64,000 bases of DNA. Source: Terriglobia bacterium. GTDB lineage: Bacteria > Acidobacteriota > Terriglobia > JAIQFV01. Position 1 is the stretch's first letter. Each line of letters starts with the position of its first letter. The notes beneath the pieces were generated by a model. That model worked only from the letters and a program-made list of their open reading frames with translations. It did no database searches and was not told the DNA's origin. The stretch is taken from NCBI GenBank assembly GCA_028716525.1, contig JAQUPQ010000015.1, positions 1,237 through 65,236 on the forward strand, read 5' to 3'. Positions 1,880-48,797 of the stretch are shown in pieces. A program made the position numbers and the translations under genes.

Positions 1880-3328
1880 TCAATGGAATCCGCCGCGAGC
1901 GCCACCGGCCATCCCGGGAGGACGCTGTTGGCCATTGCGTACTGTGGTGGTCATTTGCTGCCCCACGACCACTCGATCGCCTTCCTGCAACTGACCTTCG
2001 ACCAATTCGGTGTAGATGCCGTCCGTGATGCCCAGTTTCACCGTGATGGGTCGCAGCTTGTTGCTCTTGGCATCCCACAACCACACCTTCTGCTCGCCCT
2101 GGTTGCGGCTGGCACCTCCGGCGCGCGGTCCCTGACCCTGCGGACGGGATCCGCCTTTGCTGAAACCTCCCGCGCCCCCGGGCTGGCCTGCGCCCTTGGC
2201 TTGAGCGTCACCCTTCGGTGTCTTGGCCACTCCCGCACTGGCTTTCTTCTCTTCCTCCGACTGCGGAGGAATAAAACGAATGGCGGCATTAGGAATCTTC
2301 AGTACATTTTCACGTTGCGCCACCAGGATGGTTACATTGGCCGTCATTCCCGGCATCAACTTCAATTCCGGATTCTCCACCTGGATTACGGCGGTGTAAG
2401 TCACCACGTTTGAAATCGTCGTGGGGTTCAATCGAATCTGTGAAATGCGTCCTCGAAACGTTTCGCCGGGATAAGCGTCCACATTGAACATGGCCGGACT
2501 GCCTTCATGAATGCTTCCGACGTCGGCTTCATCGATGTTGGCGAACACCTGCATTTTTGTGAGGTCGTTGGCAATGGTGAAAAGCGTGGGCGTTTGGAAG
2601 CTGGCCGCCACGGTCTGCCCGACATCGATGGCCCGGTTTACGATGACGCCGTCCATCGGCGCATAAATCTTGGTGTGATCCAAATTGACCCTGGCCGTGT
2701 CGAGACTGGCTTTGGCCTGTGCCACCCGCGCCACCGAAGAATTCACTTGGGCTTGCTGGGAATCAATCTGGGCCTCGGCGGACTTCTGAGTCGCCACCGC
2801 GGCATCGAAATTCACCTGCGCCGTGTCGAGGTCCTGCTGCGACAAGATGCCGTCTTTGACCAGTCCCTTGGACCGGTCCAACTTGATTCTGGCATCCCGC
2901 ACCCCGACCTGGGCCTTCACCAGGTTTGCCTGCATGTTCACCAGTGCGGCTCTTTGGTTGGCCACATCGGCTTGCGACGTCTTCAGATTTGCAGAAGCTT
3001 GCTCATAGGCCGCCTGAAAGAGGGAAGGCTCAATTTCAGCGAGGAGCTGGTGAGCTTTCACATGGTTGTTGAAGTCCGCATACCATTTTGAAATGGTGCC
3101 CGAAACCTGGGTTCCAACCTGGGTCGTGGTGATAGCCGTCAAAGTGCCTGTGGCGCCCACTTCGGCCCGGATGCTGCCCCGCTCGATGGGCTGGTCCAAA
3201 TACTTGGGTGCATCTTCACGCGAATAGACCATGTAAGCGGCGAACAATCCGACCACAACTATAAGTATAAGAACCGACGCGAAACGGTGTTTTTTAATAA
3301 AGTCCTTTGATGCCATGTGACTTCTCAC
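1880..3328 (-). CDS. Efflux transporter periplasmic adaptor subunit (HlyD/MacA family) with Gly-rich C-terminal tail
   Basis: N-terminal TM anchor, long coiled-coil (Q/A-rich heptads), then beta-barrel/lipoyl-like segments typical of membrane-fusion proteins. Directly upstream of and co-oriented with the ABC ATPase. Confidence 0.8.
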
Positions 3329-3465
3329 TTTCTCGAATTGGATCGAAGGAATAATGACTCGGCGGTCTTCCTTTCGTTCCTCCGCCCGCCCCCTGAGCGG
3401 ATACTTTAAAGACGAAGGGATAACGGCTGAAGTTACAACAGCATGCTTGGAACAATCCGGGACTT

Positions 3466-4323
3466 CTACCGGCGTTGCACCGCCACCACGCGGGGGATGG
3501 ACTGCAAATCGTTCACAAACCTCAGGCCCTGCCAGTCGTCAACCGAAAATTCCTCTTGCAACAGCGGTTTTTGACCTGCGCCGATCTCCATGACCAGATA
3601 CCCACCCTGTCGTAGAAGCGGCGCCGACTCCCGGATGAGGCGGCGAAATAGGGTCATGGGGCCGCTTTCTGGAGAATAAATAGCCGCGGGTGGTTCGTGA
3701 TCCCGCACTTCTTTCGCCAACGTCTCCCGATCACCGGGAGGGACATAAGGCGGATTGGAAACCACAAAGTCCAGGGCGGCGCGATCTTCTTTCAAATGGA
3801 GCGGCGCCAGCAGATCGCCGTTCACGAACTCGATCCGATCGCAGACTCCCAAGCGTTCGGCATTTCGAGCTGCGACGTTCAAAGCCGCTCGGGATTGGTC
3901 CACAGCCACGAGGCGCGCCCCGGGAATTTCTTTGGCTAACGCGATCGCAATACAACCTGATCCTGTCCCCACATCCACAATCTGAGGTTGCGGGGATTGG
4001 TTCAATTCCAAAACGGTTTCAATGAGGTGTTCCGTCTCCGGCCGGGGAATTAGAACTTCGGATGTCACTTCGAAATCGAGCCCCCAGAATTCCTGATGTC
4101 CGGTGATGTATTGAGCGGGCTCTCCACGGGACCGGCGGACTATCCAGGAAAAATAAGTGTGCTCCTCTTCGGGCGTCAAACCTCGTTCGGAATGAGAAAT
4201 CAGCCGGACTTTTTCCACTCCCAACAGCCTCTGCATCAATACTTCGGCGTTCAACGAGGGACTCGGCGTGCCGGCCTCCGCCAGTTGTTTCTTTCCGAGC
4301 GTTAATGCCTCCGCAAGGTCCAT
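3466..4323 (-). CDS. prmC: Peptide chain release factor N5-glutamine methyltransferase PrmC/HemK
   Basis: VDVGTGSGCIAIALA SAM-binding motif and the catalytic NPPY motif (VVSNPPYV). Sits immediately downstream of prfA, as is typical. Confidence 0.9.
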   Translation of the reverse strand: MDLAEALTLGKKQLAEAGTPSPSLNAEVLMQRLLGVEKVRLISHSERGLTPEEEHTYFSWIVRRSRGEPAQYITGHQEFWGLDFEVTSEVLIPRPETEHLIETVLELNQSPQPQIVDVGTGSGCIAIALAKEIPGARLVAVDQSRAALNVAARNAERLGVCDRIEFVNGDLLAPLHLKEDRAALDFVVSNPPYVPPGDRETLAKEVRDHEPPAAIYSPESGPMTLFRRLIRESAPLLRQGGYLVMEIGAGQKPLLQEEFSVDDWQGLRFVNDLQSIPRVVAVQRR

Positions 4324-4376
4324 CCGATTCCTTCGCCGTTCCTAATCCTTGAACTGCGCGCTTAGGCCCTTCAACC

Positions 4377-5456
4377 TCACGCCGCCTCCACCGTCTGTTT
4401 CAACTTCTCCGCTTGAAAATGCGACAGCACGGCGTCGATCACCGGGCTCAAACGGCCGTCCAGGATGGAATCCAGCTGATGCAAAGTCAATCCGATGCGA
4501 TGGTCGGTCAATCGATTCTGCGGATAATTGTACGTCCGAATTTTCTCGCTGCGGTCCCCGGATCCCACCTGTGAGCGGCGGGCCTGCGCAATCTCCTGCT
4601 GTTGTTTCGCCTGCTCCATCTCAAACAGACGCGATCTCAAGACGCGCATGGCCTTGGCGCGATTCTTGATCTGGGATTTCTCGTCCTGGCACGACACCAC
4701 CAGTCCCGTGGGCAAATGTGTGATGCGGACAGCGGAATAGGTGGTATTCACCGACTGTCCGCCCGGTCCGGAGGAACAAAACGTGTCGACGCGAACGTCT
4801 TTGGGGTCGATTTGAACCTCCACTTCATCGGCCTCCGGGAGCACGGCCACGGTGACCGCGGACGTATGAATCCGCCCGCTGGCTTCGGTTTTCGGGACGC
4901 GCTGTACGCGGTGAACGCCGCTTTCGTACTTCAGTTTGCTGTACACCTTGGCCCCTTCAATCACCGCGATGACTTCTTTGTAACCGCCCACGCCGGATTC
5001 CGAGGTCGAGAGGATATCCACACGCCAGCCCTGCGATTCAGCGTAACGCGAGTACATGCGAAAGACCTCGGCGGCAAACAGCGTGGCCTCATCGCCGCCT
5101 GTGCCGGCGCGTATCTCCAGGATCACGTTTTTCTCATCGTTGGGATCCCGCGGCAGCAACAGAACTTTCAGCGACTCGGTGCACTGCTGTTCCTGCCGCT
5201 CGAGCTTCTGCAGCTCTTCTTGAGCCATGGCTTTCATTTCGGGATCGTTTGCCGATTCCAACAGCAACTGCTTGGTCTCGCGCAGGTGCTTTTCGGCTTC
5301 CTTGTATTCGCGATACTTCTCGACGATGCCGGCGATTTCTGCCCGCGCTTTGGCGGTCTTCTGATATTTGCCCGGGTCGTTGAGCGTTTCGGGCTGAGCC
5401 AGTGACATGGTCAGCTCCTCAAATTTTTGCTCCAAGGCTTCGAGTTTGGAAAACAT
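4377..5456 (-). CDS. prfA: Peptide chain release factor 1
   Basis: GGQ motif ([12 protein letters not shown]), PxT-type recognition region, about 360 aa. Gene order prfA-prmC. Confidence 0.95.
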
Positions 5457-5546
5457 TTGAAAATCCTTAAGTCCTGCGTGGGTTGAAACGATGCGGCCGG
5501 AACTCGACCGCCCGAATGGGTTGATCGTTCAGAGGAGATCGGACCG

Positions 5547-6581
5547 CTAACCTTGGGGTGCGGAATACGTCGGTTCGAGCGAGAGGGCTTCTTCCAAAGC
5601 GCGGATTCCGGTGGCCAGTTGAGCGTCGTCGGGAGGCTGGGTGGTGATGCGCTGCAGCCACAATCCGGGTTTCGTCATGATGGCGAACAACGACCCCGGT
5701 TTCTTGGCGGCATATCGAATGATCTCGTAACTCAAACCCATCACGACCGGCAACAACAAGATTCGGAAGAGAAGTTTGAGGGCAAAGGATTGGAAAGGAA
5801 TAAAACAGTACACCACAATCGAAATCAACATCACAGTCAGCAAAAAACTGGTTCCGCATCGGGGATGCAGAGTGGAAAAACCGCGGGCATTTTCGACCGT
5901 GAGCGGTTTTTGGCTTTCAAAATTGAAAACCACCTTGTGCTCGGCGCCGTGATATTCGTACAGACGATGAAACTCCTTCCACAGACCCAAGCCGCCGATG
6001 TATCCGACGAAAAGCGCCAATCGCACCACACCGTCCACCAGGTTGAATGGAATCCGGCTCTTCGCCCATTGCGTGTGATTCTGAAAATAAGTGGCGACCG
6101 ACAAGGGAAGGAACTTGAACAAGAAAATGAACAACACCGTTGCCACGATGGCATTCACGGCGATAAACCACGGCCCCAACTCGCCGCCCTTCTTGGGAGG
6201 CTCGGCCGTCGATGTCGAAGGCGCCGCTTTCCGGGCCTCCTCCTGGTCGAAAGCCTCCATCAGCTGATCGGCTGAAAATTTGATGGCTTTCATTCCCAAA
6301 ACAAAGGCCTGTCCCAAAATTCCCACGCCGCGCAACACCGGCCACTTGAACAACGGATATTTCTCCGAAACCCGGGGAACCGGCTCTTTGCGCACGGCCA
6401 CTTCCTCCGGCGTCCGATGAACCGCAATGGCAAAGGAGTGCGGCGAGCGCATCATCACCCCTTCCAGGACCGCCTGGCCGCCCACCAACAAATCTTCGGT
6501 CGGTTGCATAACCGAGTCGTTCAGCAGCTGGGTGGTGGCCCCGAGTCCTTGCAGCCAAATTCGAAGTCGGACGTTCATCAA
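5547..6581 (-). CDS. DUF1385-family membrane protein (often encoded upstream of prfA)
   Basis: N-terminal VGGQAVLEGVMMR hallmark of DUF1385, followed by several hydrophobic helices. True start may be the internal Met at about 6509. Confidence 0.6.
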   Translation of the reverse strand: MMNVRLRIWLQGLGATTQLLNDSVMQPTEDLLVGGQAVLEGVMMRSPHSFAIAVHRTPEEVAVRKEPVPRVSEKYPLFKWPVLRGVGILGQAFVLGMKAIKFSADQLMEAFDQEEARKAAPSTSTAEPPKKGGELGPWFIAVNAIVATVLFIFLFKFLPLSVATYFQNHTQWAKSRIPFNLVDGVVRLALFVGYIGGLGLWKEFHRLYEYHGAEHKVVFNFESQKPLTVENARGFSTLHPRCGTSFLLTVMLISIVVYCFIPFQSFALKLLFRILLLPVVMGLSYEIIRYAAKKPGSLFAIMTKPGLWLQRITTQPPDDAQLATGIRALEEALSLEPTYSAPQG

Positions 6582-36755: not shown

Positions 36756-38390
36756 ATGCCCAAGCGGTTGGTTCAGAAGCTCATCCTCGCCTTAACCATC
36801 CTGGTGGTGGTTGTGGAAGGCGTGGCGGGTCTGATCAATATGCGCACCCAGGAGCGGCAACTGCTGAACGCCATGATTCTGGGCGCCGATCAGCTCTCCA
36901 AGGGCATCGCCAGCGCCACTTGGCACGCCATGTTGGCGGACCGTCGCGAAGCCGCCTACGAAGTGATGCAGACCATCGCCTTGAAGCAGGGCATCAGCCG
37001 CATCCGAATGTTCAATCACGAAGGTCGCGTCATGTTCTCGACCGCCCCGACCGAACAGGGCCAGGTGGACAAGACCACGGAAGTGTGCTCGGCCTGCCAT
37101 ATTCCGGGGCAGCCCAAGCTGCATGTCGATATTCCCTCCCGGTCGCGCATTCTGGTCGATCCCAGCGGACGGCGCCGGCTGGCCATGTTCACACCCATTT
37201 ACAACGAACCTTCCTGCAGTCAGGCAGTGTGTCATGCCCATCCGGAGTCGAGGCGCGTTTTAGGCGTGTTGGATGTGGCCTTGAACCTCGACACCGTGGA
37301 CCGCGAAGTGGCCGGTATCAAGTGGCGCGTATTGCTGGTCACCGGTGTTCAGATTCTCCTGATGGGATCGTTCATTGTGTTGTTCGCGCGGCGATTTGTC
37401 GAAGCCCCCATCCGCAAATTAATTGAGGGCACACGCGCGGTGAGCGACATGAAGCTGGACCAGCCCATCACCATCGATTCCAGTGAAGAACTGGGCGAGC
37501 TGGCCCGTTCCTTCAACGTAATGCGGGATCGGTTGCGACAGGCCATCGAGGAAATCAATCAATTCACACAAAGCCTCGAAACCAAAGTCGAGGAACGCAC
37601 CGAACAACTGAAAACGGCCCATGAACGCTTGATGAAAAGTGATCGGCTGGCGTCGCTCGGACAGCTGGCCGCCAGCGTCGCCCACGAAATCAACAACCCC
37701 ATCTCGGGAGTCTTGAATCTGGCGATGCTGATGCAGCGGATCCTCAAAGACGACGGTGTCCCACCCGACCGGCTCAACGATTTTCGCAAGTATCTCTCGC
37801 AGGTCATCACCGAAACTTCCCGGGTCGGACGAATCGTGTCGGACCTGCTGGCGTTCTCCCGCCGTTCCAAACCTCAACACACGAACGCCGATCTAAACAA
37901 GATCGTAAAGACCACATTATCGCTGGTGGATCACAAACTGAAGCTGAACAATGTGGCGGTCTCAGCCCATTTCGAGGAGCAGTTGCCCCCGGTGTCCTGT
38001 GACGCTTCGCAAATCCAGCAGGTCGTCATGAACCTTATCTTGAATGGCGCCGAGGCTACCCAGCCCCGCGGCTCGGGCCGAATCGCGGTGACCACGCAGT
38101 CCGATCCCAAGAACCACGTGGTGGCCCTCACCGTCAGCGATAATGGCGAGGGAATTCGCCCGGAGCATCTTTCGAAGGTCTTCGACCCATTTTTCACCAC
38201 CAAGGAGGAAGGCAAAGGAGTCGGCCTGGGTTTGGCCGTGGTTTATGGAATCGTGGAATCCCATGGCGGCGACATCGAAGTGAAGAGCACCTTGGGAGAA
38301 GGGACCTCGTTTCGTGTCACTCTGCCGCTGAGCCCGGCAGAAAAAGCGCCGGTGGCGCCGGCGGAGGCGGGAGCCGCCTCGAGGCGGTGA
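36756..38390 (+). CDS. Sensor histidine kinase with periplasmic domain carrying CxxCH / Cx4CH putative heme-c binding motifs
   Basis: TM1 (aa 8-28), about 160-aa periplasmic loop containing CSACH (aa 111-115) and CSQAVCH (aa 154-160), TM2, HAMP-like linker, H-box [13 protein letters not shown], HATPase_c N/G1/G2 boxes ([26 protein letters not shown]). Confidence 0.85.
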
Positions 38391-38978
38391 GTGAGCGTGA
38401 ACCGGATTTATCTGGCGTCGATGGGACACTTGGACGCAGACATTCTTGAAGATCTGGAAGAAGCCTTGACGATGCACTTTGGCTTTGAAACACGCCGACA
38501 CCCTCCGATCGCCGAACCGGAGCATGCCTATGATCCGCAACGACGCCAGTTTAGCGCCGTGGCTTTTCTGCAGCAGGCCGTGGAACATTGTCCCCCCGAG
38601 GCAGTCAAGATGTTGACGATCACAGAACGGGATTTGTTCATCCCGATGCTGAGTTTTGTTTATGGACAAGCTCAACTCGGCGGGAAAGTCGCGGTCGTAT
38701 CACTGGCCCAATTGCGGCAGGAATTTTACGGCTTTCCCTCGGACGGCGATCTCTTGCGTGAACGCGCCTTGAAAGAAATGTCGCATGAGATGGGCCACAC
38801 CTTCGGATTGATTCATTGTCCGGAACGGCTTTGTATCATGTCGTTGTCAACCAATATCCGGCACATTGATTTAAAGGGAAGCGAATTTTGCGGCGGTTGC
38901 CGCGCCGTGCTGCGGGAAAACACTGCGGTCACTCGAGCCGGCGGTTCTGAAGTTTTAGCGTGGGAGGAACGATTATGA
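38391..38978 (+). CDS. Archaemetzincin-family zinc metallopeptidase (peptidase M54-like)
   Basis: Complete archaemetzincin signature HExxHxxGx3Cx4CxMx16CxxC: SHEMGHTFGLIHCPERLCIMS...SEFCGGC. Start/stop fused with the flanking kinase and regulator genes. Confidence 0.8.
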   Translation: MSVNRIYLASMGHLDADILEDLEEALTMHFGFETRRHPPIAEPEHAYDPQRRQFSAVAFLQQAVEHCPPEAVKMLTITERDLFIPMLSFVYGQAQLGGKVAVVSLAQLRQEFYGFPSDGDLLRERALKEMSHEMGHTFGLIHCPERLCIMSLSTNIRHIDLKGSEFCGGCRAVLRENTAVTRAGGSEVLAWEERL

Positions 38979-40351
38979 AATCAGCATGGGAAATCCTGGT
39001 GGTGGACGATGAGGAGATTATGCGGGAATCTTTGGCCGCCTGGTTGCGCGAAGACGGCTACGAAGTCGAGACCGCGTGTTCCGGCCGCGAAGCGCTCGAC
39101 AAGGCCCGCGCCAAGGAATACGCCATCTATTTTGTCGATTTAAAAATGCCGGGCGGCATGGATGGCATTGAAACCATGATGGAAATCCGCCGGCTGCACG
39201 CCGAGGCCTCCATCATTATTATTACGGCCTTTGCCACCGTCGACACCGCCATCACCGCCATGAAGGAAGGCGCCCAGGAATATATCGTCAAGCCGTGCAA
39301 TCCGGCGGAAATCTCGATGCTGGTCAACCGCATCATCAAGGTGAAAAACCTGCAGCGCGAGAATGCCATTTTGCGCAAGAAATTGTCGCGCCAATACAGT
39401 TTTCACGACATCATCAGCAAAAACCCGAAGATGCTGGAAATCTTCGACCTCATCAAGGAAATTGCCAGTTTGCGCAGCACGGTGCTGATTCATGGAGGCA
39501 GCGGAACCGGCAAGGAGCTCATCGCCCGCGCCATTCACAATTCAGGAAATCGCGCCGACAAGCCGTTCATTGGCGTTTCCTGCGCTGCTCTGGCCGAGAC
39601 CTTGCTGGAATCGGAGCTCTTTGGTCACGAGAAGGGATCGTTCACAGGCGCGGATCAACGCAAGAAGGGGAAGTTTGAACTGGCGGATGGCGGCACGATC
39701 TTCCTGGACGAAATCGGCGACATCTCGCCTAAATTGCAGTTGGACCTGCTGCGGGTGCTGCAGGAACGCTCCTTTTATCGGGTGGGCGGGTCTGAAGAAG
39801 TCCAGGTCGATGTGCGGGTCATCGCGGCTTCCCATGTGGATTTGCGGCAGGCCGTCCAGGAGGGAAAATTCCGCGACGACCTCTATTATCGCCTGAATGT
39901 CATCACTATTTATATCCCGCCTCTCAGCGAACGCCGTGAAGACATTCCGCTGTTGGCGCGTCACTTCATCGAACGCCTCTCCCACGAACTGGCTAAAGAG
40001 GTCGTGGATCTTTCGGAAAATGCTTTGAAATTATTGCTGGAATACGACTGGCCCGGAAACGTTCGGGAGCTTGAAAACGCCATCGAGCGCGCCATCGTCA
40101 CCTGTCGCAGCAAAATTCTCACGGAAGAGGATTTCAATTTTCTGCAGCGCAGCATCGAAGACAAGAAAGGCTGGACCGTCCCAACCCACCTTTCCCTTGA
40201 CGAGCTGGAACGCCAGGTCATTACCGCCACGCTTCAACGCACCCAAGGCAACATCAAAGAAGCGGCGGCGGTGCTCGACATTGACCGCTCCACCTTGTAC
40301 GAGCGCATCAAGAGATACGGAATCCAACGCGAACGGCTGGTCGAAAAATAA
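38975..40351 (+). CDS. Sigma-54-dependent Fis-family response regulator (NtrC class)
   Basis: REC domain (VVDDEE...D...K), AAA+ sigma54-activation domain with Walker A GGSGTGKE, the GAFTGA-equivalent motif (EKGSFTGA) and ESELFGHE, C-terminal Fis-type HTH. Confidence 0.9.
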   Translation: MKSAWEILVVDDEEIMRESLAAWLREDGYEVETACSGREALDKARAKEYAIYFVDLKMPGGMDGIETMMEIRRLHAEASIIIITAFATVDTAITAMKEGAQEYIVKPCNPAEISMLVNRIIKVKNLQRENAILRKKLSRQYSFHDIISKNPKMLEIFDLIKEIASLRSTVLIHGGSGTGKELIARAIHNSGNRADKPFIGVSCAALAETLLESELFGHEKGSFTGADQRKKGKFELADGGTIFLDEIGDISPKLQLDLLRVLQERSFYRVGGSEEVQVDVRVIAASHVDLRQAVQEGKFRDDLYYRLNVITIYIPPLSERREDIPLLARHFIERLSHELAKEVVDLSENALKLLLEYDWPGNVRELENAIERAIVTCRSKILTEEDFNFLQRSIEDKKGWTVPTHLSLDELERQVITATLQRTQGNIKEAAAVLDIDRSTLYERIKRYGIQRERLVEK

Positions 40352-40375
40352 TCTTTCGGGATTCGCTGTGCGCGG

Positions 40376-41218
40376 CTAGGGTCGAAGGAACAACGCATCA
40401 CACACCAGTTGCCAATCAGCTTTCGGGTGCGTTGCCCCCAAATCGCGCACCGGGACGCCGCCGTCGGCCAAACTGACGCCGACACCCTCCACCGCCAAGG
40501 CGCTTTGAAGCCGATCCAGCTCCCTCAAAAACCAGGGTCGAAGTTCGTTCCCATGCAACAAGGATCGAAGGTTGAAGCCGGCTTCCGGCTTCACTTTGAG
40601 GAACCAGCCTTGCTCCGGGCCGCCGGCGGCTACCACTTCGCCGGAAATCGGAGCAAGAACTCGAATGGCCACTCCGGATTTTTTCATGAACCAGCCGATC
40701 CCGTTTACCTTCAGCTTGGCGCCCACCGGAGGCAGGTCGAGGACCTCGGGATCGGGCATCATCCGGGCGCCCAAATCGTCCAAACCCACATGCACGGTTC
40801 CATCATTCTCAGGTTTCACCCAGGTGTGTCCGCGATGATAAAACCGGTCCAAAGGCACTTCCAACCCAAAAACATCTTCAGTCGCTTGAAAATTTTCTTC
40901 AACCCGAATATCGGAAGGAAGAGCCTTCGCCGTCAACCGTGCGTGCTCAGCGCAATCCCAGCATTCGAACTGGTTTTCACAGACACGCTGTTTGAACTCC
41001 CCCGTCCAAACGTGACGGCACGTGCGGTCCTGCGGCGATAATTCCTGGAAATCGGATTTCCAACGGATCGTTTCCTGCAGGTCGGAGCGAAAGGCTTTCA
41101 CGGCTCGCCACACCGCCAGGCCGACGGTCACGCCGATCACCATCAACACGGAATAAAAGACTCCCAGAAAAATCAAGAACCCAGGGCTCCAATGAAAACC
41201 ATAAATTCCGGGGAACAT
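40376..41218 (-). CDS. Membrane-anchored glycine-cleavage-H-like (lipoyl-carrier fold) domain protein with 4-Cys cluster
   Basis: N-terminal TM helix, Cx13Cx5Cx2C segment, then a GcvH-like domain: HTWVKPENDGTVHVGLDD...LPPVGAKLKVNGIGWFMKKSGVAIRVLAPISGEVV...GWFLKVKP aligns with GcvH HEW...DGT.TVGIT...LPEVG...ESVKA...APVSGEIV...GWIFKIK. Last gene of the redox operon. Confidence 0.6.
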   Translation of the reverse strand: MFPGIYGFHWSPGFLIFLGVFYSVLMVIGVTVGLAVWRAVKAFRSDLQETIRWKSDFQELSPQDRTCRHVWTGEFKQRVCENQFECWDCAEHARLTAKALPSDIRVEENFQATEDVFGLEVPLDRFYHRGHTWVKPENDGTVHVGLDDLGARMMPDPEVLDLPPVGAKLKVNGIGWFMKKSGVAIRVLAPISGEVVAAGGPEQGWFLKVKPEAGFNLRSLLHGNELRPWFLRELDRLQSALAVEGVGVSLADGGVPVRDLGATHPKADWQLVCDALFLRP

Positions 41219-41230
41219 GCTCTTCCTCCA

Positions 41231-42463
41231 TCACGGCCGCGCCAATTCCCTTTCCTGCGGGAAAAGATTGAGATAGCGGAATGAAAAAGAATAAACCAAC
41301 ACACCGTAAGCCACGATCGCCAGGAACGCCGCCGTCTCCTGCCAGCTGGGCAGATACGACAAGAACCGATCAAAGGGCAACGTCGGCAACGCCAAGGTTT
41401 GAATGGTCAGCACAAAACGGTTCAAGGCGACACCGCCGCAGACCAGCACGGCGGCCGTCAACAACCAGCCACGGTGCGCCCGAAGACGGCGGCTCAACAA
41501 AATCACAGCGGGGAGCAAGCCGAACAGCACAATCTCTGCAAACAGGATCCAGGTTCCGAACGGTTTCCACTGATAATACTGGTAGGCCGGAAAGCCCCGC
41601 GCCGGCGAAGTACCGTTGATCCATACCAGGGTATCCACGGTTTTTAACAAGGTATAAACGATCAACAGGATTCCGGAAATCTGGCCCAGCTCGCTGAACA
41701 CTTCGGGCCGGACGAGTCTTTTGCGGGAAATTTTTGACACCAGCCAGGTTGTCAACAGAATGAAGCACGGCCCGGCGGCCAGCGCCGACAGGATGAAGAG
41801 GAAAAATGTCGACGGCCAAATCGCCAGGCCCTCGCGAAATGCAAAGGGCCGCCCTCGCAGGACACCATACAGCCCTCCCAACGATCCCTGGTGGAAAAAC
41901 GAGAGAATCGTGCCGACACCCGCCAACACCACCATAAGTTTGTGCAATTCAAACTCAAAGACCAGGAACGACGGCACCTGCCGCAGTTTGCGGTTCTTCA
42001 AAATGATGGGAAGATATTCGATGAAGAGCACCGCCAGATAGCAACTGATGCAAAACGTCACTTCCGTGAGCATGGAATGCACATTGGGATGCCAAAAAGT
42101 AAACCAGGCCCGCAGGGGCTGTCCCACGTCAACCATCAACACGGCCACCGCGCCGCTGTAGCAGACGAAACCCAGCACTACGGCGCTGTTAATTACGGCT
42201 TTCAACTCTTCTTTCTTCAAAATATAGACCAGGAATCCGGTGAAGAAAGCGCCCGCACCCAACGCAATCACCGTGAGATCCAGAAAAATCCACAGCCCGA
42301 AGGCAAAACGATTGTCCATGTGCGTTTGATTCAAGCCCCGCGAAAAACACAGCCATGCCGCGTAGAGCCCCAAAGCCAACAGGGCCGTCCAAGGAAGAAT
42401 CCACATCAAAAATTTCGAAAAGGACGAGCGGGTGACGCCGCGAACCATGTATCCCCTATCCAT
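41231..42463 (-). CDS. NrfD/PsrC-type polysulfide-reductase-family integral membrane (quinone-interacting) subunit
   Basis: About 410 aa, 9-10 predicted TM helices with the NrfD-family pattern. Positioned downstream of the Fe-S subunit, as in psr/qrc/act operons. Confidence 0.75.
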   Translation of the reverse strand: MDRGYMVRGVTRSSFSKFLMWILPWTALLALGLYAAWLCFSRGLNQTHMDNRFAFGLWIFLDLTVIALGAGAFFTGFLVYILKKEELKAVINSAVVLGFVCYSGAVAVLMVDVGQPLRAWFTFWHPNVHSMLTEVTFCISCYLAVLFIEYLPIILKNRKLRQVPSFLVFEFELHKLMVVLAGVGTILSFFHQGSLGGLYGVLRGRPFAFREGLAIWPSTFFLFILSALAAGPCFILLTTWLVSKISRKRLVRPEVFSELGQISGILLIVYTLLKTVDTLVWINGTSPARGFPAYQYYQWKPFGTWILFAEIVLFGLLPAVILLSRRLRAHRGWLLTAAVLVCGGVALNRFVLTIQTLALPTLPFDRFLSYLPSWQETAAFLAIVAYGVLVYSFSFRYLNLFPQERELARP

Positions 42464-43229
42464 GAGTTTGGTCCTTCCGTGCCATCTGCACCTCATCTTC
42501 TGAAACTTTCCTGACCCAGGATTGGCGCGTCAGGTAATAAATTTTCGGTTCGGTTCCAAGTTGTTCGAGCATGCGAAAGGCTTCGGGACGCCGCGCCAGA
42601 CGGGCCACTTCACTGGTTTCGTCATTCAAATCACCGAAGACGATGGCGCGCGCCGGGCATGCTTCGACACAGGCGGGAACATATTCGCCGGGTTGAAGTG
42701 TGTCGCGGCCTGCGGCGGCCGCTCTCTCCCGTGCCGCATGCAATCGCCCGTGACAGAAATTGCATTTTTCCACGACACCCCGCATGCGCGTGGAAACATC
42801 CGGATTGAGAGTTTTTTCCATCCCCGGGGGCCACACGGCGTCCCACCAATTGAAATAGCGGGCGTGATACGGGCACGCGGCCATGCAATAACGGCATCCC
42901 AGGCAGCGTTCCGGCATCTGGCCGACCACGCCGGTCGCCGGGTCGACATCCACGGCTTGTTGCGGACAAACCGAAACGCACGGTGTCTCGCGGCCGCATT
43001 GCTGGCAGGGCACAGGTACAAACACAGAACGGTTGTTCGGAAACTTCAATCCATTGTTGAAACGATACACGCGCAGCCAGGTGATCCCGGTGCGATCGGT
43101 GGCCTCACGGTGCGCCGGAGGAACATTGTTTTCCACCGCACAGGCCATCATGCAGGCCCCGCATCCGTTGCAGCGATCCAGATCGATTACCATGCCGTAT
43201 CGAGATTTTTTTTGTGTTGGCGTGGTCAT
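42456..43229 (-). CDS. 4Fe-4S ferredoxin-type iron-sulfur subunit (PsrB/QrcC/HybA-like, four clusters)
   Basis: Four Cys clusters: CNGCGACMMAC, CQQCGRETPCVSVCP, CLGCRYCMAACP, C...CVEACP. Start set at MTTPTQ. Confidence 0.85.
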   Translation of the reverse strand: MTTPTQKKSRYGMVIDLDRCNGCGACMMACAVENNVPPAHREATDRTGITWLRVYRFNNGLKFPNNRSVFVPVPCQQCGRETPCVSVCPQQAVDVDPATGVVGQMPERCLGCRYCMAACPYHARYFNWWDAVWPPGMEKTLNPDVSTRMRGVVEKCNFCHGRLHAARERAAAAGRDTLQPGEYVPACVEACPARAIVFGDLNDETSEVARLARRPEAFRMLEQLGTEPKIYYLTRQSWVRKVSEDEVQMARKDQTHG

Positions 43230-43234
43230 GGCTG

Positions 43235-45481
43235 TCAGACTCCGCTCATCTTTGCCCGCGTCACCCTCCACACGCCATCGTCGTCGAGGTTGCACAGACA
43301 CAGAATATTCCGGCCGTCCACTTCCTGAGATTCGTGGAATTCTTTAAGGTTGGGCCCGACGATGACTTGAATTACTTCCGGCATCACAGCGTCGTCGAAA
43401 TGAACCCGCGCCACTTTGGATCCGCAGCGCGTTTGAATCAGAGCCGGGCCGCCATCCGTCAGACCCCAACGCCGTCCCGTTTCTACATTGACTCGAGCTT
43501 CGCCTCCAAGGTGGCGCAATCCCGATTCCTGATAAATCTTCGTCATGACGGGTGAAAGGCCATTCTGGCCCACGGCGCCACGCCAACCTTCCGGCATCAA
43601 GACCAGCGGAAATTCAGTTGCCGGGTCTCGCTGTATTTCCAAGCGTCCATGGCCCACGGCCTCCAGTCTTTCCGCCGCGTTGGCGGCCTTCCCCAGCAAG
43701 GAGAAACGAGAAGCAATCGGCGATGTGGAAGACGGTGGGTCATCGCGCCACGACGCTCCATCGCAAAACATGGCCCACATCGAATCCGCTGATGCGACGT
43801 CTTTCACCCGTGTCTCGGACTCGTTACGATAGCTGAAGATCGTTCCGCGGCGATCACGATGGAACTGCTCCACTCGCCGTTTGAACAAATCCTTCGGAGA
43901 GACGTCTTGAAATTCGGGGGCCAGGTGAACTCCCGCAGCCACAGCGACACGCCGAATAAAATCAAACGGCTCTTGAACTCCACCCGGTGGGACCAGCAGC
44001 GGCAGGGACAGACTGTAGGAAGTCGTCGGAGAATCCAATGGAGTCAAGACTTCTTCCCAAGACTCCAAATAGACCGGTGAAGGAACAATGAACTGCGCAT
44101 TCCGGCTTATTCCCAACAGGTACGGTGAAAAACTGACGACCACAGGATTGTCTCGCACCAACTTCTTTTCCAAGAGGGTCCAGGGGATGGCATTCCCAGA
44201 AGGCAAGGCATCGACGAATAAAACCCTGATGGAATGGTCGGGAATATCGCGAAGAGAACTTGCGGGTTTCAAATTCTTCGATGGCTCTTTTAACCATTTC
44301 GGCAGCTCGCGACGAGGGAGAAATCCGCCCCTGCGACCTACATTTCCCAACACGAAATTCAGCGCCGCAATAGCCGTTTCTTCCTCCGGACCCAACGGTC
44401 CAGCTCCCGGATCGCCTCCTCCCAAAACGATGGAGGGACCGCGTTGGACCAATTCCCGGGCCAGACTGACGATTTTATCTTCAGATACTCCCGTAATGGC
44501 AGCGGTCGTTCGGGGAGAAAACTTTTCCGTGAGCTCACGAAATGATCCCTGGGCTCCCTGCTCAAGATCGATCGCCTGCCGAGAAAGCGCCGCCATGTCG
44601 ATCAACTTTTCTTTAATCAATATGCCCGCCAGACCCAGAGCCAAAGCCGCTTCCGTGCCCGGGCGCAGAGGCAGCCACTCATCGGCCAGGAGAGCCGTGC
44701 GCGATTGGTGCGTCTCAGCCTGAATGATTTTGAGATGACTTTCAGAGGAATCTTGCAGCCCTTCCGACATTTTCCAGAGCCTTGCAGGATTCCCCCATCC
44801 GTCCAGCAGCGGCGTTCCAAAACTCAGAATGGTTCGTGTGTTTTCAAGATCAATTCCCAGGGCGCCATAGGGTTTCTCCGCGGCTGATTCCATGGCATGC
44901 AATGTGGCCCCGGAATCAGAAACCGGGTTCAGATAAACGCCGTTGGGAAAACCCGACAAAAAATTCCGATACATCAATGAGGTGACACGCCCCGGCCGTT
45001 CGTCAAGGATCGCCGCCAGATCCCCGGAACCGGACGCCCGCGTGGTGGCCAACGCCTCGGACACAGTCAAGACAATATCCTCCGGCGTACACGGCTGAAA
45101 CGATGCAGATATTCCGGAGGCGCGCCGGAGTGGCTGTGTGACACGTTGGGGATGGTAACGGAGATGATGCCCTCCGAGGCCCACGGCACACAGCGCACCC
45201 CGGCTCCCGGATTGCGGTGCGATACCCGCCAAACTAATGGGCTGTCCGCCCACGCATCGCGCCCGCACTCCACACCCTGCCGGACACAAGGTGCAGTTGG
45301 AATAACGAAACTGGATTTCGCCGCGTGGAGGAGAGGTCACCCAGCGGCCGTTTTGCGTCCAGATGGACACATCATCGAGGAGCTTCCAGGGAATGGGCGT
45401 GAACCACAACCCCAGGGCCGAACCCCCGGCCAGCCTTAACAGATCTCGACGCGAAATCTTTTCCCTCATGGCGACCCTCAA
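43235..45481 (-). CDS. TAT-exported molybdopterin-oxidoreductase (MopB/CISM family) catalytic-type subunit
   Basis: Twin-arginine signal SRRDLLRLAGGSALG. N-terminal 4Fe-4S motif CTLCPAGCGVRARC...C. About 745 aa with MopB-like domain order. Confidence 0.8.
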   Translation of the reverse strand: MRVAMREKISRRDLLRLAGGSALGLWFTPIPWKLLDDVSIWTQNGRWVTSPPRGEIQFRYSNCTLCPAGCGVRARCVGGQPISLAGIAPQSGSRGALCAVGLGGHHLRYHPQRVTQPLRRASGISASFQPCTPEDIVLTVSEALATTRASGSGDLAAILDERPGRVTSLMYRNFLSGFPNGVYLNPVSDSGATLHAMESAAEKPYGALGIDLENTRTILSFGTPLLDGWGNPARLWKMSEGLQDSSESHLKIIQAETHQSRTALLADEWLPLRPGTEAALALGLAGILIKEKLIDMAALSRQAIDLEQGAQGSFRELTEKFSPRTTAAITGVSEDKIVSLARELVQRGPSIVLGGGDPGAGPLGPEEETAIAALNFVLGNVGRRGGFLPRRELPKWLKEPSKNLKPASSLRDIPDHSIRVLFVDALPSGNAIPWTLLEKKLVRDNPVVVSFSPYLLGISRNAQFIVPSPVYLESWEEVLTPLDSPTTSYSLSLPLLVPPGGVQEPFDFIRRVAVAAGVHLAPEFQDVSPKDLFKRRVEQFHRDRRGTIFSYRNESETRVKDVASADSMWAMFCDGASWRDDPPSSTSPIASRFSLLGKAANAAERLEAVGHGRLEIQRDPATEFPLVLMPEGWRGAVGQNGLSPVMTKIYQESGLRHLGGEARVNVETGRRWGLTDGGPALIQTRCGSKVARVHFDDAVMPEVIQVIVGPNLKEFHESQEVDGRNILCLCNLDDDGVWRVTRAKMSGV

Positions 45482-46063
45482 CTACTTGTGACAATCCAGA
45501 CAGGCATCGGAACGCCCGCGGGCGGCATGACACCGTGAGCACTCCGTCATCTTCATGCCTCGCGAGAAGCCGGCAATGTTCTGCCCCCAGATATCGCGGC
45601 TGTACCCGCTGAGGCGATTGCGTTGGAATTCCCGCAACGACTCACTCGACCCGTGCGATCCATGGCATTCATCGCATTTCAGCCGGGCTTGCCGGACATG
45701 AAAGAGATGTGAGAAATAGGTGTTATCGGGTTGCCGGGAATACACGCGCCACGGGATTTCTTCGCCCGGGACGATGTATTTTTCGACGAGAAGTTTTTCG
45801 TCCGCAGAAGCCGTCAATGGCGCGGCATGGCACTCCGCGCACTTGGAGACGCTTGGAATTCCGGCAAACGAGCCGTCGCTGCGGAAGGCGTGGCAATCGT
45901 CACATTTCAAGCCGACTTTTTCCGAGGTGTGAACGCGATGGCTGAATTGCAGTGGTTGATCGATCCGCTCATAAAGCATCCGGGGAAATCCCATCCATCC
46001 AATCCCCAGTGCGGCCAATAATCCAGCCGCAAAAAATAAGAGGCCTCGATTCATTACCACCAT
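45482..46063 (-). CDS. Membrane-anchored pentaheme c-type cytochrome (NapC/NrfH/ActA-like)
   Basis: N-terminal TM helix, then five CxxCH motifs (CDDCH, CAECH, CDECH, CSRCH, CLDCH) in 193 aa. Confidence 0.85.
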   Translation of the reverse strand: MVVMNRGLLFFAAGLLAALGIGWMGFPRMLYERIDQPLQFSHRVHTSEKVGLKCDDCHAFRSDGSFAGIPSVSKCAECHAAPLTASADEKLLVEKYIVPGEEIPWRVYSRQPDNTYFSHLFHVRQARLKCDECHGSHGSSESLREFQRNRLSGYSRDIWGQNIAGFSRGMKMTECSRCHAARGRSDACLDCHK

Positions 46064-47010
46064 TTCCTCCAGTTGGCATAAGGCGAAAAGAATTGATTGA
46101 TAAACGACAGGCGGGCTTCATAGTCCAAACGATTGAAGAAACCGGGAACAAACAAACCGCCGTCGGTCATCAGCTTTTCATCCTGAGGAGCGTCCGGCGC
46201 ATGGTTCTGTATAAATTCGGTGACCCGGTTGAATTCCTGCTCCATCCAGGTCTTCGCTTCCGCCCCCGGCATCAATCCGGAGCGCGCGCCGCGTTCTCCC
46301 GCTCCGTTGGGAGGGTCCATGGTTTCGAACAACCATCCGGCTCCATAGGGTTCGGACGTCAAACGCTCGGGACTGCTCCGCAAACTCACGTTGGTGTTCG
46401 TCACGACGACAAGATTTGGAAACGCCATCTGCAGCTCCACATCCTTCAGCGTCAAAACCACGGTGGGACGATCCATCGCCCGTCGGGCCAGAAACCGGAC
46501 TTGATCCACCCGTCCCAACGCTCTCGCTAAAAACGCATCGACACCGATGTGGCACATGCCGTCATCACCCACGTCCAGCCACATGTGATTGGCGGAGTAA
46601 AACAGCTCCGGGGGAACGGGAATGCCTTCCACACGGTCATCTTCGGTGGAGGAGTGTGAACCCGACCAACCCGCCGGCGCCGTCCCCGGCATGCGGGGAT
46701 GCGCCAGGGCATAAAACAAATCGCAGAAGCGGTGAGAATCGCTGCTGCAGCGCGAGGCCAAAGACTCACTGTAAGGGATGAATTTCGTGACGGGCGCCGC
46801 CGAACAAAACTGCACCAGGGATTCTTCCAGGAACGGACACTTCTCTTGAGCCGGTCCCTCGGCATGCATTCGGGCCACCGGACAATCCAGATATGCCGGC
46901 GTGGAGCATTTTTCGCCGGCCGCGTTTCCCGGCCTTTCCACAATCATCTTGCGGAACGTCGCCGTCTGGCAGTTCTTCACGTAGGTTTCCTTGAGGAATG
47001 GACACTTCAT
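46054..47010 (-). CDS. Cys-rich protein with GcvH-like (lipoyl-carrier fold) domain; first gene of the redox operon
   Basis: N-terminal 100 aa carry 10 Cys, including two repeats KCPFL(K/E)E..V..C. Central HMWLDVGDDGMCHIGVD...LTLKDVELQMAFPNLVVVTN...SEPYGAGWLFETMD matches the GcvH fold (HEW..DG..VGIT...ESVKAASD..APVSGEIV..SEPYAGGWIFKIK). Confidence 0.6.
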   Translation of the reverse strand: MKCPFLKETYVKNCQTATFRKMIVERPGNAAGEKCSTPAYLDCPVARMHAEGPAQEKCPFLEESLVQFCSAAPVTKFIPYSESLASRCSSDSHRFCDLFYALAHPRMPGTAPAGWSGSHSSTEDDRVEGIPVPPELFYSANHMWLDVGDDGMCHIGVDAFLARALGRVDQVRFLARRAMDRPTVVLTLKDVELQMAFPNLVVVTNTNVSLRSSPERLTSEPYGAGWLFETMDPPNGAGERGARSGLMPGAEAKTWMEQEFNRVTEFIQNHAPDAPQDEKLMTDGGLFVPGFFNRLDYEARLSFINQFFSPYANWRKWW

Positions 47011-47240
47011 GTGGCACTCGTTTCTGCTATCTCACCCTCTGCCCGCCGAGAGAGTCTCCATGTCGAGTCGAAATCGAGTTTGAGTGTTTTCATCTCTGCC
47101 TCTCGACAACTTCCTCGGCGTTTTCCAAAAGGGATGGTGGCAAGAAGGCGTGAGATGGAAATTTCTCCTCGCCACCACCCTTCGCCGACGAACCACCCGC
47201 TGATTCACGTGTTTGGGGTTCGCGGCACACTGGTGCGGCC

Positions 47241-47627
47241 CTAATTCACCGACCGCACAATGTGAGGTTCTTCATCGTCCGAGACGCAATCGCCGTGCAC
47301 ATGCGGTAAGGTCGGCGCTACAGACTCGCCCCCATCCGCCATCGTGAATCCCAATTCCGGTATGAGGAAAGCATGATCGTCTTCCTTTACACTCTTGCGC
47401 TTCCGGATCATGACCATCTCGGAGTAAACCACTCGTCCCACCACGATCACGCAAGCCAAGGTCACCAATCCCAATGCAACATTGGTCAGGTTTAACCAGA
47501 ACGTGGCAGGATCAGTTGCGTTGAACACGACGCGCCTCCTTTGAAGACTTCCCGGTCTTCGCTGAACGTTGTTCACAAGGACTGGAGTGCAATCGGATGA
47601 CCGATCCGTGTTCAGCTTGTGGGACAA
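47241..47627 (-). CDS. Hypothetical small membrane protein
   Basis: ORF with one clear TM helix (NVALGLVTLACVIVVGRVV) and no recognisable motifs. Coding status uncertain. Confidence 0.25.
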   Translation of the reverse strand: MSHKLNTDRSSDCTPVLVNNVQRRPGSLQRRRVVFNATDPATFWLNLTNVALGLVTLACVIVVGRVVYSEMVMIRKRKSVKEDDHAFLIPELGFTMADGGESVAPTLPHVHGDCVSDDEEPHIVRSVN

Positions 47628-47834
47628 GCCAACATCGCATTGAAAAATCTGGAAATTAAATTGTTGGGGTGAAACGCGGCATCAGCGGACGATCACAACG
47701 GATGTGGGGTTTTCCAACACAGAATTCTAAAATTCCGGCACGACAAAGATGCGGATCTGACGTGAGATAAATCTTCTTGCAGGGGGTCGGGCGGAGGAAA
47801 GGAAGAGGAGATCCCCAGGTTTCAAAAGGGCGGT

Positions 47835-48797
47835 TCAGCTTCCCAGCTTCTTCAGCTCGCCATCAATAATCTTTTGGAATACCGGGAAAGGTTGAGCGCC
47901 GGCCACGGGACGGCCATCAATGAAGAACAGCGGTGTACCCGTGAGGTTGAGCGCCTGACCTTCCTCGATGTCGGCTTGAATTTGCGGCAAGGGCTTCTTC
48001 TGGTCGTAACAGCTTTCAAACTCGGGGATATTCAGCCCCGATTGCGTGGCGATTTCCACCGACTTAGCGCGAATCGTTTGTTCGGTGATCGTAGACTGAT
48101 TTTCAAAAAAACCGTTGTAGAAATTCCAAAAGGCGTCCTTCTTCTGCTCAAACGCGCACAAGCCGGCCACGGCAGCGCTCTCCGCCCACTTATGGATGGG
48201 CAGGGGATAATTCTTGTAAATCAGTTTGATCTTGTCGCCGTAGCTTTTGAGTACTTCTTTTTCCAGAGTTTGATAGGCCTGGCCACACATGGGGCATTCG
48301 AAATCGGAAAATTCCACAATGGTGACGGGAGCATTTTTGTTGCCGAGCATGGGCTCATTATCGAGCTTCATTTTCTTGAGATTCTCTTTGAACGGATCGA
48401 CCGTGAGATCCAGAATCTGCCCCAGGAAGGCCAAGCGATTATCCTTGCTGACCAGGACCTGAATGCGCTCGATATTGGTCCCGTCGCTGTATTTAACCGT
48501 CACGGTATCAAAACCGCTGAGCTTGGAGGAAGTACGGTCCACCACCCACATTTCCAGCCCGGCTGCCACGGGCTGGGCATTTAGAATGTTGTTGACGAGG
48601 CGCTCATTGAACTGCTCCGTGGTCATCGTGGAAGTCGGCTTTTCATCCGCGCGAGCTACGGATTTCTTGGCCGCAGCCGGCGGGGATGTTTTCTTGGTCG
48701 TCTGGGCCAAGGCCGCGGGAAAATTGAGGGCCAACAATCCCACCAGGACAAACAAAATCTCGGTAAAGAAGAAACAATTCAGGCTTCTCGGCTTCAT
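47835..48797 (-). CDS. Periplasmic DsbA-family thiol:disulfide oxidoreductase (thioredoxin fold)
   Basis: Signal peptide, Ala/Lys/Pro-rich linker, thioredoxin-like domain with active-site FECPMCGQ and the conserved cis-Pro region. Confidence 0.8.
   Translation of the reverse strand: MKPRSLNCFFFTEILFVLVGLLALNFPAALAQTTKKTSPPAAAKKSVARADEKPTSTMTTEQFNERLVNNILNAQPVAAGLEMWVVDRTSSKLSGFDTVTVKYSDGTNIERIQVLVSKDNRLAFLGQILDLTVDPFKENLKKMKLDNEPMLGNKNAPVTIVEFSDFECPMCGQAYQTLEKEVLKSYGDKIKLIYKNYPLPIHKWAESAAVAGLCAFEQKKDAFWNFYNGFFENQSTITEQTIRAKSVEIATQSGLNIPEFESCYDQKKPLPQIQADIEEGQALNLTGTPLFFIDGRPVAGAQPFPVFQKIIDGELKKLGS

Follow-up and report, generated by a model that had tools for sequence, protein, structure and literature searches.

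The gene order cytochrome c, MopB-like protein, four-cluster Fe-S protein and NrfD-like membrane protein is that of qrcABCD in Nitratidesulfovibrio vulgaris (DVU0692-0695), whose product, Qrc, specialists describe as consisting of four subunits and as belonging to sulfate-reducing Desulfobacterota (PMC8076601, PMC13059093). Comparable parts are found in alternative complex III (ACIII, ActABCDEF), in which a cytochrome with five haems is combined with a MopB-like module devoid of cofactors, a four-cluster Fe-S module and NrfD-like subunits, along with extra small single-helix subunits. Here, a locus of this kind is described in a 64,000-nucleotide (nt) stretch of DNA (the window) of contig JAQUPQ010000015.1, which belongs to a metagenome-assembled genome (MAG) of Acidobacteriia. 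In this locus (locus tags PHX83_07955 to PHX83_07980), a Qrc-like core on the minus strand is accompanied by genes for two proteins with the fold of the glycine cleavage H-protein, GcvH (G1 and G6), and for a small protein with a single transmembrane (TM) helix. We favour, with moderate confidence, the reading that the locus is a seven-gene operon under sigma-54 control for a Qrc-family respiratory complex, the three accessory proteins being stable subunits on its cytoplasmic side.

A sequence-only reading of the window had described a six-gene operon at 40376-47010, and the six minus-strand open reading frames (ORFs) are all present where it placed them. In the direction of transcription, they encode G1, a soluble protein of 318 amino acids (aa) (46054-47010); a QrcA-like membrane-anchored pentahaem cytochrome c of 193 aa (45482-46063); a QrcB-like MopB-fold subunit of 748 aa with the twin-arginine signal of Tat-exported proteins (43235-45481); a QrcC-like four-cluster Fe-S subunit (42456-43229, with the ORF extending to 43301 and a likely ATG start at 43229); a QrcD-like quinone-interacting membrane subunit of the NrfD family (41231-42463, with the ORF extending to 42496 and a likely ATG start at 42463); and G6, a single-TM protein of 280 aa (40376-41218). 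The tight packing reported for these genes is also borne out, with an overlap of 10 nt between G1 and QrcA, no gap between QrcA and QrcB, about 5 nt between QrcB and QrcC when the ATG at 43229 is taken as the start, an overlap between QrcC and QrcD, and 12 nt between QrcD and G6. However, the unit described was incomplete, as a seventh co-oriented gene upstream of G1 and the regulatory genes at 36756-40351 had been overlooked. The seventh gene (~47241-47528, minus strand) encodes the small single-TM protein, of about 95 aa, and is read from a GTG at 47528 that follows AGGAGG, the mechanical ORF beginning at a TTG at 47627.

The inner four genes are a sister group of Desulfobacterota QrcABCD. 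The window proteins exceed the NCBIfam equivalog cut-offs for QrcD (576.8 versus 570) and QrcA (216 versus 180), and QrcC is the best NCBIfam match of the Fe-S subunit. Identity to the N. vulgaris proteins is 50% for QrcD, 51% for QrcC, 39% for QrcA and 29% for QrcB, and the homology of the membrane subunit to QrcD, an NrfD-like protein of 10 helices, extends from end to end. A search with QrcD among cluster representatives at 50% identity gave only 115 sequences at E <= 1e-30. Among full-length proteins, the closest outgroup is P0244, with 52% identity and a score of 618 bits for the QrcD model, its relatives including the QrcD of N. vulgaris and of Oleidesulfovibrio alaskensis G20. Other full-length QrcD-like proteins (P0261, P0267, P0278 and others) are 35-42% identical to the window QrcD, with 210-375 bits on the same model, and proteins of this type are further uncharacterised 10-helix NrfD-type lineages.

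Moreover, the residues of the quinone site tested in QrcD (D70, D120, S138, E142 and S202 in N. vulgaris numbering) are identical, 5/5, in the window protein and in 47 clade members. Calisto and Pereira in 2021 listed 26 residues of the site and the proton pathway together (PMC8076601), and 21 of these are conserved in the same set. The four Cys groups of QrcC are identical to those of N. vulgaris QrcC, and five CXXCH motifs are present in QrcA in 69/69 orthologues. As judged from these comparisons, the best-supported reading of the core would be a cytochrome c:menaquinone oxidoreductase of the Qrc family. No clade-specific conserved His or Cys was found in QrcD, and a transmembrane electron wire built on extra haem ligands in this subunit was accordingly rejected. 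The same four genes had already been named qrcABCD in the acidobacterial MAG CO124 (locus L030 among those compared here), with transcripts detected under anoxia only and at very low levels; the gene table of that paper lists a neighbouring 'Glycine cleavage H-protein', on which its text is silent (PMC10564751).

The core is an ordinary Qrc homologue, and the locus as a whole differs from the described Qrc in several respects. The unit comprises seven genes instead of four, QrcA has five haems instead of the six of N. vulgaris, and QrcB keeps an Fe-S motif, FS0, that N. vulgaris QrcB has lost. Also, the hosts are mostly Acidobacteriota and Bacteroidota/Ignavibacteriota, whereas Qrc is described from cytochrome-rich sulfate reducers, and the operon is under predicted sigma-54 control and is accompanied, at roughly every second locus, by a two-component system of its own. 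Compared with ACIII, the MopB-like and Fe-S genes are separate in the window and fused in ActB, a single NrfD-like gene is found instead of ActC and ActF, and there is neither a monohaem ActE nor a further cytochrome gene. Moreover, ACIII is not known to have GcvH-fold subunits. The sequence-only reading had named Qrc, ACIII and the Psr/Phs/Sre reductases together; its membrane redox module of cytochrome, MopB, Fe-S and NrfD proteins stands and is specifically of the Qrc type, whereas the other two assignments do not hold.

For the Psr/Phs/Sre assignment, the deciding subunit is QrcB. Its matches to the Pfam families Molybdopterin (15.4 bits) and Molydop_binding (19.1 bits) fall below the respective cut-offs of 24 and 26.8, and the position of the molybdenum (Mo) ligand, Cys173 in Thermus PsrA, aligns with D189, in a segment that is missing in most orthologues. 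Among these orthologues, the length varies from 441 to 765 aa and the identity from 24 to 50%, with conservation at the N-terminus only. Without a conserved Mo-ligand region, QrcB has no molybdopterin active site and the Psr/Phs/Sre reading therefore fails; a catalytic reductase of this type is ruled out by the sub-threshold Molybdopterin match, the lost Mo-ligand region and the variation in length. A MopB subunit of this description, in a module of the Qrc type, is also an outcome that had been named beforehand as speaking against the earlier proposal. The absence of a Mo site is shared with the MopB-like subunit of Qrc, and the QrcB of that complex is described as cofactor-free (PMC13059093). 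However, the [4Fe-4S] motif of FS0 (CxxCxxxC...C) is found in essentially every full-length orthologue of the clade, whereas it is absent from N. vulgaris QrcB. Because FS0 is kept and the Mo site is lost, the QrcB of this clade is a form intermediate between the catalytic molybdoenzymes and the cofactor-less QrcB.

The two proteins encoded on either side of the core are GcvH-like, as had been noted before. Their scores for Pfam GCV_H, 27.7 bits for G1 and 34.3 bits for G6, are above the gathering score of 22.2, and their AlphaFold models, with a mean predicted local distance difference test (pLDDT) score of about 75 and GcvH cores near 90, match solved H-proteins across the full fold in Foldseek comparisons. 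G1, for which 252 homologues were found, is a paralogue of G6, and the similarity of the two covers the GcvH fold together with a helical extension at the C-terminus (hhalign probability 97.3%, E = 1.8e-11). The N-terminal module of G1 contains eight invariant Cys in two repeats of CPFL-x7-C...C-x7-C. In G6, the N-terminal tail (MxPxxYGFHW) is nearly invariant, and the TM helix is followed by an invariant C-x12-C-x5-C-x2-C-x2-H module. No relatives of these Cys modules were found in Pfam (E <= 10), NCBIfam or a PDB profile search. The small protein, which has no Pfam match, carries the C-terminal motif LGxTMADGGE, and an ADGG motif is common to the three accessory families, following a long helix in G1 and in G6. 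The DGG core is present in 65/65 sequences of the small protein and in 68/68 and 80/81 of the other two families, and the pLDDT around the motif is 58-74.

These two GcvH-like proteins had been proposed to act as lipoyl- or Cys-based carriers of sulfur or electrons for a periplasmic reductase of the Psr/Phs/Sre kind. The confirmed fold and the abundance of Cys in both proteins agree with this proposal, and sHdr-type sulfur oxidation does involve GcvH-like proteins that bind lipoate. Nonetheless, in a profile alignment to the E. coli H-protein (ESVK*AAS), the position of the lipoyl-Lys is occupied by Gly in the window G6 and by Asp in the window G1. Across each of the two families this position varies, with no conserved Lys. 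Therefore, G1 and G6 are not lipoylatable in the canonical way and are not lipoyl carriers. Also, their scores on the NCBIfam GcvH equivalogs (29-36 bits) are far below the cut-offs of 115-117, and gcvT/gcvP, lipoate ligase and sHdr genes are neither recurrent neighbours in the 80 related loci described below nor present among the scanned ORFs of the window. The likeness to GcvH and to LbpA of sHdr systems is thus one of fold, and the Cys-rich N-terminal modules, the C-terminal helix, the ADGG motif and the membrane anchor of G6 set the window proteins apart. A periplasmic reductase served by carriers is further contradicted by the missing Mo-ligand region of QrcB and by the predicted location of the GcvH-like domains, which is cytoplasmic, whereas the redox module is periplasmic. 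Moreover, the cluster also occurs in Solibacter usitatus, an aerobic heterotroph. Some hosts, such as Sulfopaludibacter, do have a dissimilatory sulfur metabolism (PMC10564751); even so, the carrier proposal is largely refuted and retains only a very slight probability.

The accessory genes are constant companions of the core in related loci. A profile scan with G6 of a collection with one genome per species gave relatives at 365 loci, of which the best 80 were inspected, and the synteny count was restricted to the 61 of these with at least 7 kb upstream. In tblastn comparisons with the window proteins, the order is invariant (small TM protein, G1, QrcA, QrcB, QrcC, QrcD, G6), and all seven genes are colinear on one strand in 58/61 loci from several phyla. 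A neighbourhood survey had been suggested with the sequence-only reading, and it shows that genes for GcvH-like proteins do co-occur with an NrfD/MopB operon; this conserved arrangement is far beyond chance. The small gene lies directly upstream of G1 in 65/80 loci (tblastn), and the median gaps are 5 nt between the small gene and G1, -10 nt between G1 and QrcA, and 2.5 nt between QrcD and G6. QrcD is 67-82% identical across these loci, and the accessory proteins are conserved at about the level of QrcA and above that of QrcB. No other gene family near the operon recurs in more than 7/80 loci, including hydrogenase, formate dehydrogenase, cytochrome c3, lipoate ligase and Hdr. On the other hand, tblastn with G1, G6 and the small protein gave nothing better than E = 0.14 at the N. 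vulgaris loci (L081, L082) and at one related uncultured locus (L083), which have qrcABCD only and no GCV_H gene.

According to their labels, which may be wrong for MAGs, the hosts of the 80 loci are mostly Acidobacteriota (Bryobacterales, Solibacteraceae, Sulfopaludibacter, Thermoanaerobaculia), along with Bacteroidota, Ignavibacteriota, Kryptoniota and KSB1, with single MAGs of Verrucomicrobiia and Limnocylindrales. Going by the record titles, most come from soil, peat and sediment. Two loci labelled Acidiferrales (L052) and Verrucomicrobiia (L056) have near-identical promoter and palindrome sequences and the same gene spacing, which suggests mis-binning or very recent transfer, and the spread at the phylum level is therefore read with caution.

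Regarding topology, the N-terminal tails of G6 and of the small protein are uncharged or acidic and clusters of Arg/Lys follow the helix, whereby the positive-inside rule would place both proteins with the N-terminus out and the C-terminus in. Together with the missing signal peptide of G1, this leads to the prediction that the GcvH folds and the three ADGG motifs are cytoplasmic. The QrcABCD-like core most likely works as in Desulfobacterota. The membrane-anchored multihaem cytochrome c would exchange electrons in the periplasm, and these would pass through the four Fe-S clusters of QrcC to menaquinone, which would bind near the periplasmic face of QrcD, with proton uptake from the cytoplasm. 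G1, G6 and the small protein would be clade-specific additions at the cytoplasmic side, presumably subunits with a structural or regulatory role that bind metal (Cys4/Cys8) and form a cap over QrcD on this side. Such a cap would be loosely analogous to the cofactor-less barrel-sandwich domains of NqrA (of Na+-NQR) and RnfC, although the resemblance is weak and partial, with no sequence similarity, and NqrA and RnfC are much larger multidomain proteins with different membrane partners.

The predicted location and the richness in Cys of the accessory proteins are also what would be seen in maturation factors, that is, cytoplasmic membrane-tethered chaperones or Fe-S donors that hold QrcB and QrcC until cofactor insertion and hand-over to Tat. 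In this case, the twin-arginine signal, found in the QrcB of most orthologues, and the retention of FS0, by which an extra cluster and extra proteins co-occur in the clade, would be in agreement with such a role. Moreover, assembly factors are often encoded in the operons of their enzymes, and NapD/NapF, TorD/DmsD and HybE have comparable roles for other Tat-exported redox enzymes. However, the known Tat proofreading chaperones are soluble and of unrelated fold, and N. vulgaris exports a four-cluster QrcC without factors of this type. Also, a mere tether needs no conserved N-terminal tails and TM segments, whereas the short periplasmic tails and the TM segments of G6 and the small protein are strongly conserved and argue, as far as sequence can tell, for specific contacts within the complex. 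Because of these conserved segments, the tight translational coupling and a conservation that equals that of QrcA and exceeds that of QrcB, subunits are favoured over assembly factors, which we regard as unlikely, though with an appreciable chance of being the correct explanation.

A different location has been considered for G1, which could hitch-hike through Tat, already folded, with QrcB and QrcC, its two Cys4 sites then being periplasmic Fe-S sites that feed FS0 of QrcB as a second electron entry. The strict conservation of FS0 after the loss of the Mo site calls for a redox partner, and G1 has eight invariant Cys. Moreover, the window QrcC has no signal peptide and so must be co-exported, and the G1 gene overlaps qrcA, being translationally coupled to the periplasmic subunits. 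Nonetheless, the paralogue G6 and the small protein share the ADGG motif on the predicted cytoplasmic side, where a common partner is the simpler explanation, and Fe-S clusters at the Cys sites of G1 are a supposition. We consider this arrangement very unlikely.

The genes that converge on the operon from the other side suggest how it is controlled. On the plus strand, a sensor histidine kinase (36756-38390; HAMP, HisKA, HATPase_c) is followed by a protein of the archaemetzincin family (peptidase M54; 38391-38978; Pfam Peptidase_M54 E = 9e-24, NCBIfam archmetzin 161 versus a cut-off of 145) and by a sigma-54-dependent response regulator of the NtrC/ZraR/AtoC type (38960-40351; Response_reg, Sigma54_activat, HTH_8), which is convergent with the operon. 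The regulator is found in 41/80 loci, where it is 71-81% identical and usually adjoins the operon, and all three regulatory genes are found in 28 of the 45 loci with room on both sides. In most related loci, a TGGCMC-N5-KTGCA element lies about 40-55 nt before the small gene. In the window, the corresponding candidate sigma-54 (-24/-12) promoter is CGGTCATCCGATTGCA (47588-47603, minus strand), a GG-N10-GC element with TTGCA that resembles those of the closest relatives (L017, L018) and is a weak match by itself; a plain scan of the window for TGGCAC-N5-TTGC was uninformative, and the promoter was recognised solely through the comparison of loci. In addition, a 36-bp palindrome (TGCCGGAWTTTCAGA-N7-9-TCTGAAAATCCGGCAC) is present in Acidobacteriota loci about 55-95 nt upstream of the -24 element, and a candidate upstream activator site in the window, the imperfect palindrome TGCCGGAATTTTAGA-N8-TTGGAAAACCCCACA (47704-47740, minus strand), is a more degenerate copy located about 100-135 nt upstream. 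On this comparative basis, the operon is probably under sigma-54 control and switched on by the adjacent sensor kinase and regulator.

The kinase has a periplasmic Cache/PAS-like domain (residues ~28-190) with the motifs CSACH (CXXCH) and CSQAVCH (CX4CH). The second (CSxAxCH) is present in 37/37 aligned orthologues, and the first in most of them, that of MAG CO124 being an exception. A weak match to the haem-c sensor domain Mcp40H-20_sensor of the Geobacter chemoreceptor PAS (E = 7.7e-4) is below the Pfam cut-off. The kinase may then be a haem-c redox sensor. The archaemetzincin gene, whose start abuts the kinase stop and whose end overlaps the regulator start, recurs in 35 loci, and we know of no role described for an archaemetzincin in a bacterial two-component system.

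This arrangement raises the possibility that the accessory proteins form a signalling or regulatory layer that reports on or controls the complex from the cytoplasm, for example by gating proton uptake through QrcD, or with the archaemetzincin-like protease processing the ADGG motifs as feedback on the two-component system. An identical short motif in flexible regions of three different proteins, a cytoplasmic metalloprotease gene between kinase and regulator in 35 loci, and Cys-rich modules that could be redox or metal sensors would fit this idea, as would the uptake of protons from the cytoplasm by N. vulgaris QrcD (PMC6303296, PMC13059093). However, the idea is wholly inferential, the regulatory genes accompany the operon in about half of the loci (41/80 overall, 28/45 with room on both sides), no substrates of archaemetzincins are known, and GcvH folds have no known precedent in signalling. 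Its probability appears distinctly low. In a broader formulation, which we consider doubtful but somewhat less so, the Lys-less GcvH-fold metalloproteins and the small ADGG protein would constitute a new cytoplasmic module that couples or gates an NrfD-type complex, whether through redox- or metal-dependent control of proton uptake by QrcD or through protease-linked signalling to the sigma-54 system.

Several observations weigh against the reading of a Qrc-family complex with stable cytoplasm-side subunits. On the side of the core, QrcC (363 versus 400) and QrcB (257 versus 440) score below their NCBIfam cut-offs, although Qrc is the top family for each and the next-best family for QrcB is PhsA, with 107; moreover, the FS0 motif hints at an electron route unlike that of canonical Qrc. 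Regarding the accessory proteins, a physical tie to QrcABCD is a supposition, and co-transcription would be equally expected for assembly factors. Their topology follows solely from the positive-inside rule and the missing signal peptides, and a cytoplasmic cap would have no obvious job where the redox chemistry is periplasmic. The Cys modules are modelled at low pLDDT (~45-65), and because of these low-confidence models and the lack of known relatives, metal binding and the type of metal are guesses. Also, one Bryobacterales locus (L071, region 2500-6100) keeps QrcABCD and G6 and has neither G1 nor the small protein. Finally, in the transcript data of MAG CO124, which are the only set available, values are near zero for the operon and zero for the G6 homologue.

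The accessory trio, the GcvH folds without Lys, the shared ADGG motif and the regulatory module are undescribed in the searchable literature. No relevant paper came up in full-text searches for Qrc or NrfD in combination with GcvH or glycine cleavage, in agreement with the earlier claim that complexes of this type are not known to have GcvH-like partners. The trio could have been either acquired or retained in this lineage. A sister lineage of Qrc with intact quinone-site residues widens the ecological reach of Qrc-type energy conservation, and a context is now assigned to a large protein family mislabelled as 'glycine cleavage system H protein' in databases. If a gating module were confirmed, it would represent a new, lipoate-independent role for the H-protein fold in membrane bioenergetics. 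These ideas are directly testable because the cultured Solibacter usitatus Ellin6076 encodes a G6 homologue.

Some further features of the window and of related loci are worth recording. In MAG CO124, according to the published gene table, the sigma-54 regulator is separated from the G6 homologue by three short genes for hypothetical proteins of 71-86 aa, and regulator and operon are therefore not always directly adjacent. At the Bryobacterales locus without G1 and the small protein, the upstream region instead encodes multihaem cytochromes and a protein that looks LarA-like by eye. Just upstream of the promoter region of the window operon, a DsbA-like thioredoxin-fold protein with a signal or anchor is encoded on the minus strand (47835-48797); as such a gene is found in 0/80 related loci, it is probably unrelated to the operon. 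An Rfam scan of 40000-48000 gave no match, and scans for terminators and sigma-70 promoters were not above chance. Finally, a non-coding spacer of 230 nt (47011-47240, minus strand) separates the small gene from G1, whereas in related loci the median distance is 5 nt and the maximum 88 nt. This spacer contains a long GC-rich hairpin followed by UUUU, which is more stable than shuffled sequences (z = -2.7), and it may act as an attenuator or as an internal regulatory element that is peculiar to the window genome.

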